A DNA stretch of 64,000 nt. Source: an uncultured Gammaproteobacteria bacterium (GTDB lineage: Bacteria > Patescibacteriota > Patescibacteriia > CAZSQN01). The position numbers were made by a program, and so were the translations under genes. The stretch covers positions 12,687 through 76,686 of the forward strand of contig CAZSQN010000003.1 of NCBI GenBank assembly GCA_964609095.1, read 5' to 3'. Below are positions 4,191 through 23,955 of the stretch, one piece after another. The first letter of the stretch is position 1, and each line of letters opens with the position of its first letter. The notes beneath the pieces were generated by a model. The model was not told the origin of the DNA. It did no database searches and saw only the letters and a program-made list of their open reading frames with translations.

Positions 4191-5711
4191 CTAATGACTA
4201 ATTTCTAATCTTGGAAAAAGCGCCGCGCCCTTTTTCACCTTGCTTCCCGGCTTTATCCCGCCCCATTTTTTGGCCGTCTCATAGCGCGAACTCCGCCAGG
4301 TCTTTCCAAAGCCAAGGTCTTTAAAAATTTTATCAGCCGTATCGGGTAAAAATGGCGCGACCATCCAAGCAATATTTCGGAGCGATTCAAGCAAGGTGTA
4401 GATAACTTTAGAGAGCCGTTTTTTGTCTATTTTGGCTAAAACCCACGGCTGCTCCGTATCAATAAATTTATCCAAAGCGCCGACCGCGTCCCAGATATCG
4501 GAGAGAGCCAAATCCAACCTTAAACTCCCCATATTCACTTCATATGATAGCCAAGTATGGGCAATCCTGCCAGTGGCGCGAGGCGGCACTATACCGCCAA
4601 AATACTTTTCGGCCATGCCTAAAATTCTGGCGGTTAAATTGCCTAAACCATTGGCCAGATCAGCGTTGTACCGCTCGCTCATCCTGTCGGGCGAAAAGTC
4701 CCCGTCGTTGCCAAACCCGATTTCGCGCAAAAGATAATAACGCAAAGCATCAACGCCAAACCGCGAAGTCAATTCAACCGGATTAATCGCGTTGCCCAGC
4801 GACTTGGAGATTTTCTCTCCGTCTATGGTAAAAAATCCGTGGGCAAAAACTTTTTTGGGAAGCGGCAATCCGGCGGAAAGCAGCATGGCCGGCCAAAGCG
4901 CGCAATGAAACTTGATAATATCTTTGCCCACCAGATGCAGGTCCGCCGGCCAATACTTTTGAAATTTTTTACCGTCTGCGCCGTAGCCAACCGCGCTTAA
5001 ATAATTGATAAGCGCGTCAAACCAGACATAAATCGCGTGATGTTTATCCTTTGGAAACGGAGTCCCGCATTTTGCCGAAGCGCGGGTAATGGAAATATCC
5101 TCCATAAAATTTTGGATATAACTCACTACCTCGTTTCGCCTGCTTTCAGGCGCGATAAAATCAGGATGCTTTTTAATGTGATTCAAAAGCGCTTTCCTGT
5201 ATTTTGACAGTTTGAAAAAATAATTTTCTTCTTTAATTTTTTCCGGCGGCTTTTTATGAATCGGGCAAAGCCCGCTTTCCAAATCCGATTCAGGCAAAAA
5301 TGTTTCGCATCCGACGCAGTACCAGCCCTCATAAGTTCCTTTATAAATATCCCCGCGCTTCCATACCACCTCAATAAACTTGGCGATCGCCTTTTTATGC
5401 CGCGTCTCGGTCGTGCGGATAAAATCGTCATTAGTCATTCCGAGCGAATCCCAGGTTTCCGCCCAAACCGCAGCCATTTCATCCAGATAACCTTTGATGT
5501 CCCCCTCTTTTCCCAATTTTTTGGCCGCTTCAATATTCTTTTGGCTGTTTTCATCCGTGCCAGTTAAAAAATTTACCTCAAAACCACGCATACGAAAGTA
5601 GCGCGCGAGCGCGTCTGCCGCGAACATAGTATAAGCGTGGCCAATATGCGGCTTGTCGTTTACGTAATAGATAGGCGTGGTGATGTAGAATTTTTTGGAA
5701 TTTAATGCCAT
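4191..5711 (-). CDS. metG: Methionyl-tRNA synthetase (class I, short form).
   Basis: TTPIYYVNDKPHIGHAYT (HIGH motif), KISKSLGN (KMSKS motif), and Cys-rich zinc knuckle CVGCETF...CPIHK. Confidence 0.92.
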   Translation of the reverse strand: MALNSKKFYITTPIYYVNDKPHIGHAYTMFAADALARYFRMRGFEVNFLTGTDENSQKNIEAAKKLGKEGDIKGYLDEMAAVWAETWDSLGMTNDDFIRTTETRHKKAIAKFIEVVWKRGDIYKGTYEGWYCVGCETFLPESDLESGLCPIHKKPPEKIKEENYFFKLSKYRKALLNHIKKHPDFIAPESRRNEVVSYIQNFMEDISITRASAKCGTPFPKDKHHAIYVWFDALINYLSAVGYGADGKKFQKYWPADLHLVGKDIIKFHCALWPAMLLSAGLPLPKKVFAHGFFTIDGEKISKSLGNAINPVELTSRFGVDALRYYLLREIGFGNDGDFSPDRMSERYNADLANGLGNLTARILGMAEKYFGGIVPPRATGRIAHTWLSYEVNMGSLRLDLALSDIWDAVGALDKFIDTEQPWVLAKIDKKRLSKVIYTLLESLRNIAWMVAPFLPDTADKIFKDLGFGKTWRSSRYETAKKWGGIKPGSKVKKGAALFPRLEISH

Positions 5712-5862: not shown

Positions 5863-6432
5863 CTACTGACGATGGAGGCCAAATTTACGAACCAACCAAT
5901 AATCGCCGGGGAATCTCTCTGAGGTAAGATATATAATATTTCTTCTTAGACCATATCCGGTTCTCATAAGTTCGATCATCTGATCTGCGGAATAGGGGAA
6001 AATCCAGACACTGTCTTGTAGGCGAAAAAAACCTATAGAACGGAGGGTTTCCCGAGTCCTGTCTCGAAGAACCTTCCGCTTCTCCTCAACATCAAAAATA
6101 ACTATTCTCCACTTCTCATCCCATTTCTTTGGTCTTTTTAATTTTATCTGCTTGGCCTCAATCTGTTGCAGAAATTTGTATCCTTTTTCAGTTAGATTAA
6201 TAAATGTATGCGCGCTGCTAATTTTCTTGAACAAAATCCCACGAGCAACCAATCTATTTACTGTTTGGTTAATAATAGCGGTAAAACTCCCCTCCCTCCG
6301 TTCAAGAAACACCGGCCCAAGATGTTTAATCAGGTTCGGCGCAACAAAAGAAGCCGCGACCAAACCAGTTAATCCCACTGCTTTTATAACCTCTTTTGTC
6401 CATTCAATTCTTTCAATTCTTTTATTTTTCAT
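5863..6432 (-). CDS. Putative transcriptional regulator: N-terminal winged helix plus a C-terminal Cas2/VapD-like motif, resembling the PaaX-like architecture.
   Basis: The N-terminus INQTVNRLVARGILFKK...LTEKGYKFL looks like a wHTH. The C-terminus WRIVIFDVEEKRKVLRDRTRETLRSIGFFRLQDSVWIFP matches the Cas2 core pattern (hhhhYDV..RR..l...l...G.R.Q.SVF). The gene is flanked by identical about 35-bp nested-palindrome elements. Confidence 0.45.
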   Translation of the reverse strand: MKNKRIERIEWTKEVIKAVGLTGLVAASFVAPNLIKHLGPVFLERREGSFTAIINQTVNRLVARGILFKKISSAHTFINLTEKGYKFLQQIEAKQIKLKRPKKWDEKWRIVIFDVEEKRKVLRDRTRETLRSIGFFRLQDSVWIFPYSADQMIELMRTGYGLRRNIIYLTSERFPGDYWLVRKFGLHRQ

Positions 6433-6489: not shown

Positions 6490-7440
6490 CATTCTTTCTA
6501 TAATTAAAAAAGGGTCCAGCTTTTGGCCAGACCCTCGCGCCGACGAATCGGCTAATGTCACTTCGCCGAGAACGCGACCTTCATAGGACACCTCCTGGAT
6601 GAATGGTTTTTTCGTGAAAGAACGAAAGATGGGTGCGTGCCCGGAATCTAACAGGGATGTGTTTACATTACATTACACGCACCTTACCAGTAAAAACAGA
6701 GTGACTTAGCGTGCCTTATACGGCACGGCACCCGTCGAGGACGTCTCCTCTAACCGGATGAAGTCACGGACTTCGGGAACGTCGCGACGTCCCTGAAGTT
6801 GCCCTCCTGGACCCCGAGGCGGAACTCGGAGCGCTCCTTTGATTCGTTCCAGGCCATCGAGGACCTGGTAACGTCCGCTGCCCGTCCCCAACGCGTCAAC
6901 GCGTCAAGGACAGATTTTAAGGTTCTGGCGAACAGTGGGAAGTAAATCCCTAAACCATTCGTCAAAACCAGTGGAGCCGGGTGGAGTTGAACCACCATCA
7001 TCAACCTGGGCATCCTATATCCCATTAACAGGTATGCTGGCCCGTTAAGAGCTTACGCTCTGATTGATTTACCTCCCTTTAGGCGGCTCCTAAAAAGTGC
7101 TGGACTGAGTGAGATATTTGGGCGGTGAAGTTGGCTTCATTAAGGGAGAAGCCCAGTAGCCCATTTTGCCCGGTGAAGAGTTCCAGCACCAGTGCGACCG
7201 GAAGGATTTGAACCTTCACTCTCTGCGATTCCACTCCCCGTGATTCCCATTTGGGCGGAAGCCAGAGCGCAGCCCGTGCTCGGTCGCGACAACTTTGTGA
7301 AGAACTGCGGGGGGTTTTGTACTCTGGTCCAACCAGAGCCGAGGTTACTCTACCCCCCTAAATCACCTCACTTCTAACGGACAGGTTACCACAAACCCCA
7401 AAATCTGTCAAGCCCCACTGACAAAATTATGAATTTTCTC
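6490..7440 (-). ncRNA. ORF-free, GC-rich structured region: candidate ncRNA locus or loci of unknown class, containing two tRNA-like T-arm/acceptor modules. Possibly tmRNA-like or tRNA-like RNAs.
   Basis: There is no ORF above 91 aa on either strand across about 950 bp. The minus strand carries GGTGG-TTCAACT-CCACC-CGGCTCC-A (6969-6997), with a complementary GGAGCCG at 7083-7089. It also carries GAAGG-TTCAAAT-CCTTC-CGGTCGC-A (7193-7219), with a complementary GCGACCG at 7281-7287. Other structure includes a GNRA hairpin CAGAGC-GUAA-GCUCUG, a G6...C6 hairpin at about 7310-7355, and a minus-strand TTGACA-17-TAACCT promoter-like site at about 7384-7412. No canonical anticodon arm was found in either module. 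Confidence 0.4.
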
Positions 7441-7445
7441 TTCTG

Positions 7446-7481
7446 ATATCACTTTTGACACGGCCGTGTCAAAAGTGATAT
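7446..7481. terminator. 36-bp perfect palindrome (18+18, no spacer) abutting the rsmI stop codon.
   Basis: ATATCACTTTTGACACGG followed by CCGTGTCAAAAGTGATAT. TTTATT follows on the plus strand, and there is no U-run on the minus strand. Confidence 0.45.
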
Positions 7482-8165
7482 TTATTCCGCAGCGGCAGAA
7501 ATTACAATTACAAACTCTCCTCTTACTTCATCCTTCGGAATTTTATCCAAAATATCCACTATGTTTCCGCGATAAATAGATTCAAATTTTTTTGTTAATT
7601 CACGCGCCACCATTATTTTCCTTTTCGCATCAGCATATTTCCTTAATTGTTCCAAGGCCTTAATCAGGCGATACGGCGATTCGTATAAAACAATTGCCCG
7701 CTTCTCGCTTGCCAATTTTTTAAAAAACGTCTCTCTCCCCTTTTTATGCGGCGGGAATCCTAAAAAAACAAACTCGCCCATCGAAAAACCAGATATTGAA
7801 ATCGCGGCGGTCAAAGCCGAAGGACCGGGAATTGATTCACAATTTAAACGATCGTCAAAATTATGAACCAGGGCGGCAACCAATCTGCCGCCGGGATCTG
7901 ATATACCGGGGGTTCCGGCATCAGCGGTCAAAGCAATGTGTTTTCCGCTATCCAACGCTTCTATAATTTTTGGGAGCATTTTTTCATGGGAATGTTCGTC
8001 ATAGCGCCAAACTGTTTTATTTTTAATATCAAAATGCGCCAAAAGCTTGGCCGCCATGCGAGTGTCTTCGGCTAATATCAAATCCGCTTCGCGCAAAGTT
8101 CTAATGGCGCGAAGAGTAATATCTTCAAGATTGCCGATTGGCGTTGCCACAATTGACAATTTCAT
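7482..8165 (-). CDS. rsmI: 16S rRNA (cytidine1402-2'-O)-methyltransferase, a tetrapyrrole-methylase fold.
   Basis: MKLSIVATPIGNLEDITLRAIRTLREADLILAEDTR...TDAGTPGISDPG is the characteristic RsmI N-terminus. Confidence 0.85.
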   Translation of the reverse strand: MKLSIVATPIGNLEDITLRAIRTLREADLILAEDTRMAAKLLAHFDIKNKTVWRYDEHSHEKMLPKIIEALDSGKHIALTADAGTPGISDPGGRLVAALVHNFDDRLNCESIPGPSALTAAISISGFSMGEFVFLGFPPHKKGRETFFKKLASEKRAIVLYESPYRLIKALEQLRKYADAKRKIMVARELTKKFESIYRGNIVDILDKIPKDEVRGEFVIVISAAAE

Positions 8166-9401: not shown

Positions 9402-9516
9402 AATCCCGTTAGAGATAGGAAACGGTTAAACCGTTTCCGTTAAACCTTTATAAATTTTCATAATTTATAATCATTTCTAAATTCAATAATTTCTGCGTAT
9501 AAAACATATATTGATC
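9402..9516. repeat. Inverted-repeat element: 14-bp arms ATCCCGTTAGAGAT / ATCTCTAACGGGAT enclosing a GGAAACGG-TTAAA-CCGTTTCC palindrome.
   Basis: Seen directly. It lies in the thiI upstream region. Confidence 0.5.
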
Positions 9517-9526
9517 TCTAACGGGA

Positions 9527-9557
9527 TAAAAAAGCCCCGGCTGTTTTAGTCGGGGCA
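9527..9557 (-). terminator. Rho-independent terminator for the 9569..10582 gene.
   Basis: Minus-strand hairpin GCCCCGACUAAAACAGCCGGGGC followed by UUUUUU. Confidence 0.6.
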
Positions 9558-9568
9558 CTTTATCAAAA

Positions 9569-10582
9569 CTATCTGGTATTTGAAGAAACGTTCGGAATAT
9601 CAATCGGCGGCCTGTTGGCGCCGCACAGCTCTTCCCTAACGCGGAAAGCCGCGTAAACAATCGGCCCGCCGCCGGCAAACGAGCGGATTTCCACCCGCAC
9701 AGCCGCCGGGTCAGCCGGAACCGCGAACGCAACCGCCGCGTTGGGATTAATCCGGTCGTCAAAAGCCAAAACATTTTGCTCCGTAAGAGGCGGCTCACCC
9801 GTAAAAACATAAAGGTCAACATCGCGAGCGGCGCCGCCCGAACCCGAAACGGCAACAAGCAAACACATACCGACAGTCGCGCCGGAAGGAAGTCCGGAAA
9901 CGGCCACGGTTCGGCCCTGCATGAAATTGGGGAAATCCGCCGCCCATGGCAAACGCGCCGCATTTGGTTCAGCGCCGCTCGCGATGGTGGAAATCGCCTC
10001 TTCCATGGCCCTTCTTTCAATATTCTGCAGCCGTGAAACAACATCAACTATCACTTCAACGCTCTCTACCGGATAAAGAGCCAAAACAATGCCCATCCTC
10101 GGTCCGCTTGAAACCGCGCCAAGCGTGACTCGCTCGGCGCCGCCAAGACAAAATCCCCGGCCGGCCATGCCAGCGCTCTTATACCAGTCATTCCTGTTTA
10201 GCCCCTGATTCACCAGTTCGCCGGCCATGTTGGTGGCGCCGACATCAACTTCTGCCAAAGGCAATTGAGTCGTGCCAACCAGCATATAACATCCCCGCGG
10301 AACTTCGGTCACAACGCTCAAGGCCCCGCTTTCGGTAGCCAAACCGGCGTAAACGGCAATCGCCGCCACGGAAGAAAGTCCGCTGGCCGTCTGAAATGAC
10401 CTCTGTCCCGTTCCCGCAACCTCAAAGTCGCTCTCGCCAAACTCAACTTCCGTCAGGCGCCGCATCGGCAAGCCGCCGCAGCCGAAAATGCTAAAAAGGG
10501 CAAACAGAGCCGTTGTCCGTCTCATCTCATTCTCCTCTCGTTGCTCCATTACAAGCTTATAATAAGCAAAAATCGCGGTCAA
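9569..10582 (-). CDS. Hypothetical secreted lipoprotein in a compositionally atypical, GC-rich segment.
   Basis: The probable start is the internal Met (MRRTTALFALFSIFGCGG, a signal peptide with a lipobox-like FGC). The segment 9450-10590 is visibly GC-richer than its flanks. No recognisable catalytic motif. Confidence 0.5.
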   Translation of the reverse strand: MTAIFAYYKLVMEQREENEMRRTTALFALFSIFGCGGLPMRRLTEVEFGESDFEVAGTGQRSFQTASGLSSVAAIAVYAGLATESGALSVVTEVPRGCYMLVGTTQLPLAEVDVGATNMAGELVNQGLNRNDWYKSAGMAGRGFCLGGAERVTLGAVSSGPRMGIVLALYPVESVEVIVDVVSRLQNIERRAMEEAISTIASGAEPNAARLPWAADFPNFMQGRTVAVSGLPSGATVGMCLLVAVSGSGGAARDVDLYVFTGEPPLTEQNVLAFDDRINPNAAVAFAVPADPAAVRVEIRSFAGGGPIVYAAFRVREELCGANRPPIDIPNVSSNTR

Positions 10583-23677: not shown

Positions 23678-23718
23678 CCGAAACAAAAACAACCTCACGC
23701 GAGGAGGTCGTTTTTGGG

Positions 23719-23797
23719 TGTGGAGCCAAGGGGTATTGAACCCCCCTATCCGAGTGCTAACCACGGAATCCTCACCGTGAGGTGGCCACAAGGACTC
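23719..23797 (-). pseudogene. tRNA-like fragment, probable tRNA pseudogene or remnant. The 3' half is canonical and the 5' half does not fold.
   Basis: The minus strand reads ...GGGGG-TTCAATA-CCCCT-TGGCTCC-A, a T-arm plus acceptor 3' strand. The partner GGAGTCC lies at 23791-23797. The D and anticodon regions form a tight palindrome CCTCACGGTGAGG instead of a cloverleaf. Confidence 0.3.
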
Positions 23798-23955
23798 CAC
23801 GGCGAGGATTGTAGCAGTTTAGAAAATAAAAAGAAAATCCGAGATTTCTCTCGGACTTTCGAGGACTCAATAGAATCCGTGGTTAGCTATTTAAATATAG
23901 CATATCTATGAGATTTGTCAAGATAATCCATCCACAACCTCTTTTTGGATGAACT

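Follow-up and report, generated by a model that had tools for sequence, protein, structure and literature searches.

A clade-restricted modular noncoding RNA with embedded tRNA-like modules downstream of rsmI in Candidatus Uhrbacteria

The RNA gene, its features and its distribution

The stretch of DNA analyzed here (the window, 64,000 nucleotides) comes from a member of Candidatus Uhrbacteria in the candidate phyla radiation (CPR). The CPR bacteria, or Patescibacteria, have tiny genomes from which very few noncoding RNAs are known. Positions 7411-6504 on the minus strand of the window are a stand-alone structured noncoding RNA gene of approximately 880 nt, a single transcription unit that runs from a sigma-70-type promoter of its own to an intrinsic terminator. 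The flanking genes (thiI, rsmI, metG, cvpA, tatD) are chromosomal housekeeping genes; a paaX-like gene is inserted between the RNA locus and metG, and, this insertion aside, the RNA is co-oriented with metG. The features of the gene, from its promoter to its terminator, are as follows.

7383-7411, minus strand: promoter (-35 TTGACA at 7411-7406; 17-bp spacer with TG at 7391-7390; -10 TAACCT at 7388-7383)
7300-7369, minus strand: 5' H-type pseudoknot domain (from strand order and complementarity in relatives)
7193-7287, minus strand: tRNA-like module 2, 95 nt (alignment A2, covariance model R1)
7091-7192, minus strand: spacer between the modules, CUGG-UGCUGGA...UCCAGCA-CUUUUU, which folds as a long hairpin
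6972-7090, minus strand: tRNA-like module 1, 119 nt (four-arm fold predicted in three loci)
6911-6971, minus strand: linker hairpin GGUUUUGACGAA...UUCGCCAGAACC and conserved UUAAAAUCUG
6697-6910, minus strand: conserved pseudoknotted 3' core (from nine complete loci)
6632-6683, minus strand: window-specific hairpin GGUGCGUG...CACGCACC (predicted fold)
6558-6596, minus strand: optional module with a perfect Shine-Dalgarno (SD) sequence AGGAGGUG (6596-6589) and an eight-codon ORF, MKVAFSAK (6584-6558)
6504-6552, minus strand: small hairpin GCCGAUUCGUCGGC (6552-6539) and intrinsic terminator stem (6536-6510) with U-tract

The RNA is conserved at a fixed position in one sub-clade of Candidatus Uhrbacteria: all 12 loci in which RsmI is 66-100% identical have a homologous RNA of 550-900 nt immediately downstream of rsmI, and metG follows in every locus that reaches that far (rsmI - RNA - metG). 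Segments of the window have 80-83% nucleotide identity to one of these loci, L007. Eighty more distant rsmI loci do not carry the motifs, and an RsmI-based scan of GTDB found only relatives of at most 56% identity, all without them. DNA-pattern scans gave no match in GTDB, none and then two chance matches within coding sequence in JGI metagenomes, and none among IMG/VR viral sequences; no earlier description of this RNA was found in the literature. A repeat or mobile element, raised by four Logan contigs that end 30 nt past rsmI, was rejected: the contigs break inside a perfect palindrome (7443-7484), which indicates an assembly artefact.

GC content is 0.50-0.62 across the RNA region versus 0.34-0.46 in its flanks, and the predicted fold of the minus strand is more stable than that of the plus strand (-365 versus -319 kcal/mol; z = -4.5), in agreement with a preliminary description of the region as GC-rich and structured. 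The lower folding energy of the minus strand, together with G:U pairs in the helices, is consistent with its transcription. The earlier statement that no credible ORF exists holds insofar as a Pfam search of nine ORFs in the region returned no match, but not insofar as mechanical ORFs of up to 91 amino acids are present. A protein-coding pseudogene was rejected on the Pfam result and on the interspecies indels and hairpin covariation, which are incompatible with a reading frame. Thus, both outcomes that the preliminary description named as arguing against an RNA gene, a lack of conservation and a frameshifted pseudogene, were looked for and neither was found.

TTGACA-17-TAnnnT, mostly with an extended -10 TG, is present at the rsmI end of the locus in all relatives. 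The promoter of this form previously placed at approximately 7384-7412 is therefore present in a recurring arrangement, although its position is 7411-7383 and its -10 hexamer (TAACCT) is weak, which accounts for its absence from the output of a consensus promoter scan of the window. At the other end, where a terminator-like hairpin had been noticed at approximately 6508-6535, a terminator scan gives a stem of 11 pairs at 6536-6510 with TTTTTT behind it; every relative for which the 3' end is available closes its locus with a homologous terminator (GAGGGUUCAG...CUGAACCCUC) or a comparable hairpin with U-tract, and in L005 a convergent gene comes after it. The mini-ORF reported earlier can be read from the sequence as described, with AGGAGG at 6596-6591 and MKVAFSAK at 6584-6558. 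Mini-ORFs of eight or nine codons, each behind a perfect SD, are found in three of the 12 loci (MKVAFSAK in the window, MKVAFSVR in L007 and MRVTVSVAK in L005, the K-to-R change between the window and L005 being made via AAG to CGA), and were not found in the other loci with an available 3' end (L013 is cut off). The long GC helix GGUGCGUG...CACGCACC of the preliminary description does fold as a hairpin (6683-6632), though it has no counterpart in any relative and is an insertion limited to this genome.

Independently folding modules and their covariation

The RNA is an assembly of modules that fold independently and have been gained or lost from one species to another. In the 5' domain, S1 pairs GAGG (7369-7366) with CCUC (7344-7341) and S2 pairs GGGGGG (7358-7353) with CCCCCC (7314-7309), so the GGGGGG...CCCCCC helix noted earlier is the second stem of a conserved pseudoknot; an inserted hairpin (7338-7322), an A-rich strand and conserved GCAGUUCUU follow in that order. 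The strand order S1a-S2a-S1b-hairpin-S2b is kept in 11 of the 12 loci, in which six S1 and nine S2 strand pairs occur in ten combinations, all complementary.

The two T-arm/acceptor modules followed by CUGG that were recognized in the preliminary description are present at 7287-7193 (95 nt) and 7090-6972 (119 nt). Module 2 consists of a 7-bp acceptor stem (GCGACCG/CGGUCGC), a 3-bp D-stem with a 5-nt loop containing GG, a variable arm at the anticodon-arm position, a T-arm (GAAGG-UUCAAAU-CCUUC) and a discriminator A before CUGG. Module 1 has the acceptor stem GGAGCCG/CGGCUCC (A3-U70), a D-like hairpin (CCU-AAAGGG-AGG), a branched arm closed by AUCAAUC/GGUUGAU, a T-arm (GGUGG-UUCAACU-CCACC) and likewise a discriminator A before CUGG; the GNRA-capped helix noted earlier is a GUAA-capped hairpin within it. 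Separate predictions for the window, L007 and L015 agree on its four-arm fold, and the base stem of the long arm has a different version in each (AUCAAUC/GGUUGAU, AUUGUUCC/GGGCAAU and UCCGGAUU/GAUUCGGA, respectively). A regular-expression scan of the 64-kb window for a T-arm with a perfect 7-bp acceptor stem found only two true tRNAs, the two modules and one weak match, compared to approximately 0.6 matches in the shuffled-sequence control.

Across species, the modules keep the 7-bp acceptor, the 5-bp T-stem, a UUCRANY loop, G53-C61 and the D-loop GG, with compensatory changes. In an alignment of nine modules (A2), 94.4% of cells are paired versus 37-49% with the partners slid, and seven pairs are changed on both sides, including acceptor pairs 3:70 and 4:69 and T-stem pair 51:63. 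The covariance model R1 gives 79.5 bits for module 2 of the window, a copy that belongs to the training alignment, and 25 bits for the L007 copy of module 1; it finds modules in this clade only, including two copies outside the training set. Genomes whose RsmI proteins are only 67-77% identical share the 5' half of module 2 without a change. In most relatives module 2 has G1:C72, C2:G71, G3:C70 and U73, a combination similar to the acceptor set of bacterial tRNA-Gly. The arm at the anticodon position is free in length and sequence and different in every species, ending in a GNRA tetraloop (e.g. GAAA), a long hairpin or another non-anticodon loop; the modules therefore cannot decode. The shortest modules (68-73 nt) have this arm capped by a tetraloop, and module interiors range from 25 to 150 nt. 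Every module in the relatives is followed by a long hairpin equivalent to the spacer of the window. A separate small tRNA-like gene with its own promoter and terminator is located elsewhere in the window (23721-23799), and the best Rfam match of the element at 23722-23771 is the mascRNA model, below threshold. This free-standing gene suggests that the organism makes tRNA mimics as independent products.

All 12 loci have the linker hairpin, those without tRNA-like modules included, and a AACCUUAAAAUCUG motif follows it in most of them (not in L005, L007 or L099). In the 3' core, a pseudoknot forms between GCGGA (6878-6874) and the loop UCCGC (6823-6819), hairpin Hc (6831-6812) borders an invariant stretch, GUCCAGGAGGGCAA (6812-6799), a long-range helix joins GUGACUU (6767-6761) to AAGUCAC (6707-6701), and hairpin Hf pairs CGUGCC with GGCACG. 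The hand-registered helices of the core, which were chosen by eye, are 95.1% paired in the nine complete loci (264 cells) versus 33-46% when slid, with six or seven differing versions each of Hc, P-long, J and Hf. RNAalifold and a pair-count tool applied to MAFFT alignments support the pseudoknot, Hc and Hf; P-long and J are just 57-58% paired in the raw MAFFT alignment because of one-column shifts. The core motif is found neither in the rest of the window nor in the 80 distant loci. Invariant single-stranded stretches stand beside freely covarying stems in the core, and such invariant unpaired nucleotides in a structured RNA of approximately 0.9 kb argue for a real function. The covariation in related loci that the preliminary description proposed to look for thus takes the form of compensatory changes in the modules, the 5' pseudoknot and the 3' core; the sample is 12 loci of one sub-clade, the only ones in which the family is seen, so the covariation rests on few independent events.

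The number of tRNA-like modules per locus varies from zero to three. L005, L011 and L013 have no module yet keep the 5' domain (and, in L011 and L013, the 3' domain), which implies that punctuation is not required for the RNA to exist; L098 is without the entire 3' core, and L015 is without the 5' domain. The locus is therefore a natural variant series, in which the tRNA mimics number zero to three and the 3' core is present or missing.

Known RNA families, rival explanations and a proposed function

No Rfam 15 family reaches threshold in the window or its relatives, nor is any part of the RNA matched, which together with the conservation and covariation in 12 loci bears out two of the identities offered by the preliminary description, a tRNA-like RNA and a novel structured RNA, as opposed to the others. 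RNase P RNA, SRP RNA, 6S RNA, known riboswitches, group I and II introns and self-cleaving ribozymes were rejected, having no Rfam match at E <= 10 in the window and six relatives. A hammerhead was rejected as well, the likeness to CUGAUGA...GAAA being present in some relatives only and replaced by GUCCGUGAC in the window, as was oligomerization by kissing loops through palindromic apices (ACGCGU), the same sequence being a stem and not a loop in the window. A Y-RNA-like molecule, also suggested earlier, fits neither the Rfam result nor the neighborhood, which has no rsr and no Ro/TROVE domain among the flanking genes, nor the 5' and 3' ends, which lie at the acceptor stem rather than at a Ro-binding stem. 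ARAGORN with default settings, with and without introns, found no tRNA or tmRNA in the window region or in 12 intergenic regions, and with relaxed settings gave a different 'anticodon' and unrelated 'tags' in each homologue, i.e., nothing consistent at any setting. There is no match to RF00005, and the tRNA-Sec model scores just 15.8-16.8 bits; noncanonical or intron-bearing tRNAs, as once envisaged, are contradicted by these results and by the species-specific GNRA-capped or long arm at the anticodon position.

A divergent tmRNA, one-piece or permuted, is a very improbable identity for the locus, as is an intron-containing pair of tRNAs. The acceptor 3' strand GCUCCA resembles those of tRNA-Ala and tmRNA, and module 1 of two species has weak matches to the tmRNA model (14.7 and 18.9 bits), but all scores of RF00023 (14.7, 15.7 and 18.9 bits) are far under the threshold of 47 and only the acceptor and T-arm align. 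At 3:70, module 1 has A-U and module 2 has G-C (A-U in L099), never G:U; the order of the acceptor strands is the standard one and not permuted; and the interiors contain no conserved tag frame. The modules of 68-73 nt close the arm at the anticodon position with a tetraloop, and ARAGORN returned nothing by default and only inconsistent noise under relaxed settings; the earlier suggestion of a tmRNA or permuted tmRNA (RF00023, RF04321) fails. Regulation of metG is another improbable role, in which the RNA would be a cis-regulatory leader (a divergent T-box, riboswitch or attenuator) sensing methionyl-tRNA via its tRNA-like parts or mini-ORF and gating read-through of the terminator. The RNA is always upstream of metG and co-oriented with it save for the inserted paaX-like gene, it ends in a terminator with a perfect-SD mini-ORF just ahead of it, and words of the GGUACCG type recall T-box sequence. 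Nevertheless, there is no Rfam match to the T-box (RF00230) or a riboswitch, no antiterminator pairing was found to compete for the 5' strand of the terminator, and past the terminator metG has a conserved promoter-like motif of its own (TTGAAAAAAA...TAAAAT); a convergent gene in L005 and the paaX-like gene in the window intervene, and the mini-ORF, limited to three loci, has no internal Met codons.

The resemblance of the modules to tRNAs minus the anticodon arm, their variable number and the loss of whole domains in some genomes would also be expected of a relic tRNA operon with leader, spacers and trailer, in which tRNA genes decay and the locus has no function of its own. This explanation is unlikely to be correct: compensatory changes keep the stems, the 5' half of module 2 is unchanged at RsmI identities of 67-77%, the 3' core and the 5' pseudoknot covary as well, promoter and terminator are retained, the GC content is elevated in the manner of functional structured RNAs, and not one true tRNA gene lies downstream of rsmI in the 80 more distant loci; the trend here is already one of stem positions under pairing constraint. 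More probable, though still rather unlikely, is an intact large 'ornate' RNA of the GOLLD/ROOL/OLE kind, in which the linked mimics would be functional domains, for instance to dock on elbow binders (such as the ribosome or RNase P) or as cargo on display, rather than cleavage signals. The size and multiple pseudoknots agree with it, the invariant unpaired stretches beside covarying stems in the 3' core are as in a functional core, and the architecture parallels that reported for GOLLD, whose 3' region is conserved, whose 5' region is less so and whose linker sometimes holds tRNAs (PMC12286853). Against this, the Rfam models of GOLLD and ROOL have no match in the window, L010, L011, L012, L015, L099 or L100 even at E <= 10, the context is chromosomal housekeeping rather than prophage with no match in IMG/VR, and the absence of the 3' core from L098 and of the 5' domain from L015 is hard to square with a single integrated fold.

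The explanation considered best, with about an even chance of being right, is a clade-restricted modular noncoding RNA whose tRNA mimics act as recognition units for tRNA-processing machinery. The upper half of a tRNA suffices for RNase P, RNase Z and the CCA-adding enzyme; thus, judging from their shape, the modules are most likely recognized by these three enzymes. Neither the modules nor the true tRNA genes of the window and genome encode CCA, which fits tRNA processing, whereas A8 instead of U8 and a D-stem of just 3 bp in module 2 (2 bp in L012, L014 and L100) count against it. RNase P would cut at 7288/7287 and 7091/7090, and RNase Z after 7193 and after 6972. This would leave the 5' pseudoknot as a capped RNA, free the modules as stable tRNA-shaped small RNAs (95 and 119 nt) and yield a 3' fragment of approximately 460 nt with the core, in a way analogous to the release of mascRNA from MALAT1 and the punctuation of plant mitochondrial transcripts by t-elements. 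It is also possible, more tentatively, that the RNA represents an undescribed class of modular large RNA of CPR chromosomes in which the embedded anticodon-less mimics do more than punctuate, being either functional products or domains for docking, as decoys of the machinery that binds elbows or acceptors; the mimic at 23721-23799 of the same genome would be a sign that the lineage has a dedicated family of tRNA-shaped RNAs that do not decode.

Comparison with known systems

YrlA, like the modules, does not decode and has a tRNA-like module with acceptor, D and T parts. It ends in a Ro-binding stem, its acceptor is closed by a loop and its genes adjoin rsr and rtcB; in the present RNA, the ends lie at the acceptor stem, no rsr is nearby and there is no Rfam match. 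The tRNA-like domain of tmRNA shares the acceptor and T-arm, the reduced D region, the long helix from the anticodon side, the acceptor 3' strand GCUCCA and weak covariance-model matches, but the modules lack G3:U70, an mRNA-like domain, a tag frame and pseudoknots PK1-PK4.

GOLLD RNA (RF01998) and, more loosely, ROOL are likewise large bacterial noncoding RNAs (> 500 nt) with multiple pseudoknots. In GOLLD, as in the RNA of the window, tRNA units can be joined covalently into a linker between two regions; GOLLD is reported to have them there in some cases, between a 5' region of lower conservation and a conserved 3' region (PMC12286853). Assembly into homo-oligomeric cages is a further trait of GOLLD and ROOL. 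The present RNA differs from GOLLD and ROOL in matching no Rfam model and no sequence in IMG/VR and in its chromosomal housekeeping context, as opposed to phage or prophage near tRNA islands; it differs from GOLLD in that the embedded units are anticodon-less mimics rather than decoding tRNAs and in that its domains are individually dispensable between species. The variant series is thus useful for the question, raised by GOLLD, of the role of embedded tRNA units in large bacterial RNAs.

The mascRNA is only approximately 60 nt and has no normal anticodon loop. Structures resembling tRNAs within transcripts of other kinds are known substrates of RNase P and RNase Z (PMC4919922), and for mascRNA and menRNA (from MALAT1 and MEN-beta) and the t-elements of plant mitochondria, cuts by the two enzymes set the flanking ends and release a small tRNA-like RNA (PMC4919922). 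As in these systems, the modules have a tRNA-shaped upper half with a conserved acceptor and T-arm within a long non-tRNA transcript; the known examples are eukaryotic or organellar, whereas the modules here are bacterial and internal, number up to three per transcript, and are predicted to be cleaved. If RNase P and RNase Z do cut the mimics out, the locus would be a bacterial counterpart of MALAT1/mascRNA end formation; if the mimics stay uncut, it is a new case of tRNA mimicry as a structural or decoy domain.

A stand-alone RNA gene between rsmI and metG

The region from 7411 to 6504 on the minus strand of the window is shown to be a stand-alone, modular, structured RNA gene, in the order metG, small PaaX_M/Cas2-like gene, RNA locus, rsmI, thiI; the NCBI source of the RsmI protein is a Candidatus Uhrbacteria bacterium. 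Its GC content is 0.50-0.62 versus 0.34-0.46 in the flanks, and folding is more stable for the minus strand (-365 kcal/mol, against -319 for the plus strand; z = -4.5). The preliminary description called the region free of ORFs; mechanical ORFs of up to 91 aa exist, but none has a Pfam match. The terminator-like hairpin that it placed near the end of the locus was confirmed by a scan (6536-6510), and the promoter that it proposed has a form common to relatives (TTGACA-17-TAnnnT, usually with a TG extended -10 in the latter), but its -10 hexamer is weak and was unreported by the consensus scan.

Contigs of relatives, chosen via RsmI homologues of 66-77% identity, supplied 11 further loci (L005, L007, L010-L015, L098-L100), all with 340-940 bp devoid of genes after rsmI, and with metG next wherever the contig reaches (those of L010 and L013 stop before). 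By BLASTN, two stretches of the window are 80-83% identical to L007: the 5' part with module 2, and the 3' end. The common plan, read from the sequences, is promoter (the -35 hexamer overlapping the rsmI stop codon in several loci), 5' domain, zero to three tRNA-like modules with a long hairpin after each, AACCUUAAAAUCUG motif, 3' domain, optional SD and mini-ORF, and a strong terminator. The modules of the locus are individually dispensable between loci: tRNA-like modules are missing from L005, L011 and L013, the 3' domain from L098 and the 5' domain from L015; L100 carries two or more tRNA-like modules, of which one measures 200 nt, and the mini-ORF is present only in the window (MKVAFSAK), L007 (MKVAFSVR) and L005 (MRVTVSVAK).

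Just 5' of metG, directly after the RNA terminator, L007, L010, L011, L014, L015, L098, L099 and L100 have a conserved promoter-like motif, TTGAAAAAAA-N(about 14)-TAAAAT. Its end is just a few bases short of the metG start codon, which suggests a promoter of metG's own and a nearly leaderless mRNA. In L007, a perfect 16-bp hairpin covers the metG start codon. The PaaX_M (Cas2-like) protein of the window (189 aa, 5863-6432, minus strand) is encoded between the RNA terminator and metG, co-oriented with the RNA; L005 has a paaX-like gene in the same interval (4613-5170), but inverted, and none is present in the remaining relatives whose contigs extend to metG.

At the other end of the locus, a perfect 42-nt palindrome, AUAUCACUUUUGACACGGCCGUGUCAAAAGUGAUAU (7443-7484), overlaps the rsmI stop codon of the window and is not found in relatives, in which that stop codon is overlapped by the RNA promoter instead. 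Four independent Logan contigs end 30 nt after rsmI, inside this palindrome, which marks the breaks as an assembly artefact and no indication of a repeat. Elsewhere, GC is unusually high (0.59-0.63) at positions 9500-10000 and AT skew is strongly positive (up to 0.46); the stretch falls within overlapping minus-strand ORFs (9448-10047 and 9569-10582), neither with a Pfam match.

tRNA-like modules

Reading of both strands located two T-arm/acceptor modules exactly as the preliminary description had them:

7287-7193, minus strand: module 2, GCGACCG ... GAAGG-UUCAAAU-CCUUC-CGGUCGC-A, then CUGG
7090-6972, minus strand: module 1, GGAGCCG ... GGUGG-UUCAACU-CCACC-CGGCUCC-A, then CUGG

A scan of the 64-kb window for a UUCRANY T-loop with five closing pairs and, next, a 7-nt strand whose perfect complement lies 30-260 nt upstream returned the two real tRNAs, both modules, one weak match and nothing else; shuffled sequence gave about 0.6 matches. 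Covariation in homologous loci, the check proposed earlier, was run on nine aligned modules with an imposed acceptor stem, 3-bp D-stem, 5-bp stem in the anticodon position and T-stem, and compensatory pairs were seen. Pairing held in 94.4% of cells, versus 37-49% with the 3' partners slid by one to three columns; seven pairs changed on both sides, and in 500 shuffles neither the pairing nor the covariation score was ever as high as observed. In the acceptor, 3:70 (G-C to A-U) and 4:69 (A-U to G-C) change together, pair 51:63 of the T-stem is A-U, U-A or G-C, and three pairs of the anticodon-position stem show two-sided changes. The modules are thus under structural selection.

No conserved anticodon loop was found across the modules; the anticodon-position stem is capped by a GAAA tetraloop (L010, L098), a near-palindromic hairpin (L012, L100), a 9-nt loop (L007) or a 37-nt hairpin (window). 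The four-arm fold of module 1 is the same in the window, L007 and L015, with a different base stem of the long arm in all three. Since G53-C61 and the UUCRANY loop are retained, as is a GG in the small D-loop, a tRNA elbow could form. The true tRNA genes of the window are likewise without an encoded CCA. A covariance model of the module, searched over 558 kb of sequence, recovered every training copy and two modules outside the training set (L100 999-1198, 39 bits; L007 module 1, 25 bits), with no match in 80 rsmI loci of more distant bacteria, at least 20 of them other Patescibacteria.

One further element lies apart from the locus:

23721-23799, minus strand: third tRNA-like element, within intergenic stretch 23690-23955

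Its T-arm is GGGGG(G)-UUCAAUA-CCCCU(U), and its acceptor-like strands (GGAGUC.../...GGCUCCA) resemble the acceptor of module 1, with A3-U70 in both. Upstream of it (about 23914-23830) are a TTGACA-17-TATATT promoter and a short hairpin resembling a terminator; its own terminator follows. ARAGORN did not call it, the covariance model scored it at 19 bits, and its top Rfam match was mascRNA, sub-threshold (E = 0.055). A separate gene with an acceptor like that of module 1 hints that the tRNA mimics are products in their own right.

The 5' and 3' domains

In 11 of the 12 loci, the 5' domain has the strand order S1a, S2a, S1b, inserted hairpin, A-rich strand, S2b, with all strands complementary despite wide differences in sequence, and is an H-type pseudoknot. 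Stem S1 occurs as GAGG/CCUC, GAGGC/GCCUC, GAAAG/CUUUC, GGAGA/UCUCC, ACGGG/CCCGU, CGGG/CCCG and ACUGG/CCAGU; S2 as GGGGGG/CCCCCC (the helix pointed out previously, its complementarity kept across loci), GGUGGU/ACCACC, GGGAGU/ACUCCC, GGAGG/CCUUC, AGGGU/GCCCU and others. Conservation of the loop nucleotides is low, so a structural or protective element would be a better fit than a ligand pocket. A 15-nt tandem duplication (UUUGCAUUCUCCGCC x2) covers the S1b strand in the 5' domain of L014 (3681-4320), and hairpin Ha of the window (about 6907-6892) contains a similar direct repeat (UUGACGCG x2); from these, variation between modules would seem to be driven by local duplications.

The 3' domain is a pseudoknotted core with invariant unpaired stretches. 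Invariant in it are AAGGrgyGC, UUCYGC, GUCCAGGMGSGMAA, a CUCAAUCG-like stretch and CGGUNCCGKGCC; in the RNAalifold structure GCGGA pairs with the UCCGC of a hairpin loop, with compensatory GCAGG/UCUGC in L012 and L014. On the raw MAFFT alignment the pseudoknot and helices Hc and Hf are 94-98% paired, and helices P-long and J 57-58% because of one-column misalignments. With hand registration 95.1% of 264 cells are paired versus 33-46% when slid, an upper estimate since the helices were picked by eye. Hc, P-long, J and Hf each have six or seven distinct sequence versions.

Identity of the RNA and comparison with known systems

The tRNA, tmRNA and Y-RNA identities first proposed for the locus did not hold up. 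On the window, both ARAGORN and Rfam 15 at gathering thresholds reported tRNA-Glu and tRNA-Pro only, neither module and no other family. At E <= 10, module 2 matched tRNA-Sec (15.8 bits, sub-threshold) and module 1 matched tmRNA (14.7 bits) and permuted tmRNA (15.7 bits; threshold 47 for each), the tmRNA alignment spanning just the T-arm and the 3' acceptor strand; ARAGORN with introns and relaxed thresholds gave calls that disagree from one homologue to the next. A tRNA, intron-bearing or not, a tmRNA and a permuted tmRNA are ruled out by the lack of a consistent or above-threshold match and by the varying anticodon-position arm. A Y-RNA-like identity had also been suggested at the outset; a YrlA-type Y RNA is rejected by the lack of a match and of an adjoining rsr and by the wrong placement of the RNA ends. 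Against a relic tRNA operon stand the covarying stems and the conserved promoter and terminator; rsmI is not followed by a tRNA gene in any of 80 other loci. A T-box or other metG leader is rejected by the lack of an Rfam match or antiterminator alternative, by the separate promoter-like motif before metG and by the convergent gene after the terminator in L005; GOLLD and ROOL, by the lack of a model match and a different context.

What RNase P, RNase Z and the CCA-adding enzyme recognise in tRNA is the elbow and the acceptor/T-arm half. The modules retain precisely this half and discard the anticodon, so they are most likely handles for the tRNA-processing machinery, a reading given about even confidence. 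Cleavage at the modules would turn the primary transcript into products of four kinds: the 5' pseudoknot as a separate RNA, small tRNA-shaped RNAs, the spacer hairpins, and a 3' RNA with the conserved core. These enzymes are known to act on tRNA-like structures in non-tRNA transcripts, among them MALAT1/mascRNA, MEN-beta and plant mitochondrial t-elements (PMC4919922). The main rival, rather unlikely, is that the RNA is left uncut, as has been reported for GOLLD, in which the 3' region is conserved, the 5' region varies and the linker sometimes contains tRNAs (PMC12286853).

The 3'-core motif occurs once in the window and in none of 80 distant rsmI loci, and the family is seen in 12 loci of one sub-clade; broader pattern scans of JGI metagenomes gave just two chance matches, both inside coding sequence, and scans of GTDB representatives and IMG/VR gave none. 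A published description was not found in the literature, and no Rfam family matches. The general concepts of large ornate bacterial RNAs and of tRNA-like processing modules are not new; this RNA family, its chromosomal CPR setting and its embedded anticodon-less tRNA mimics appear to be.
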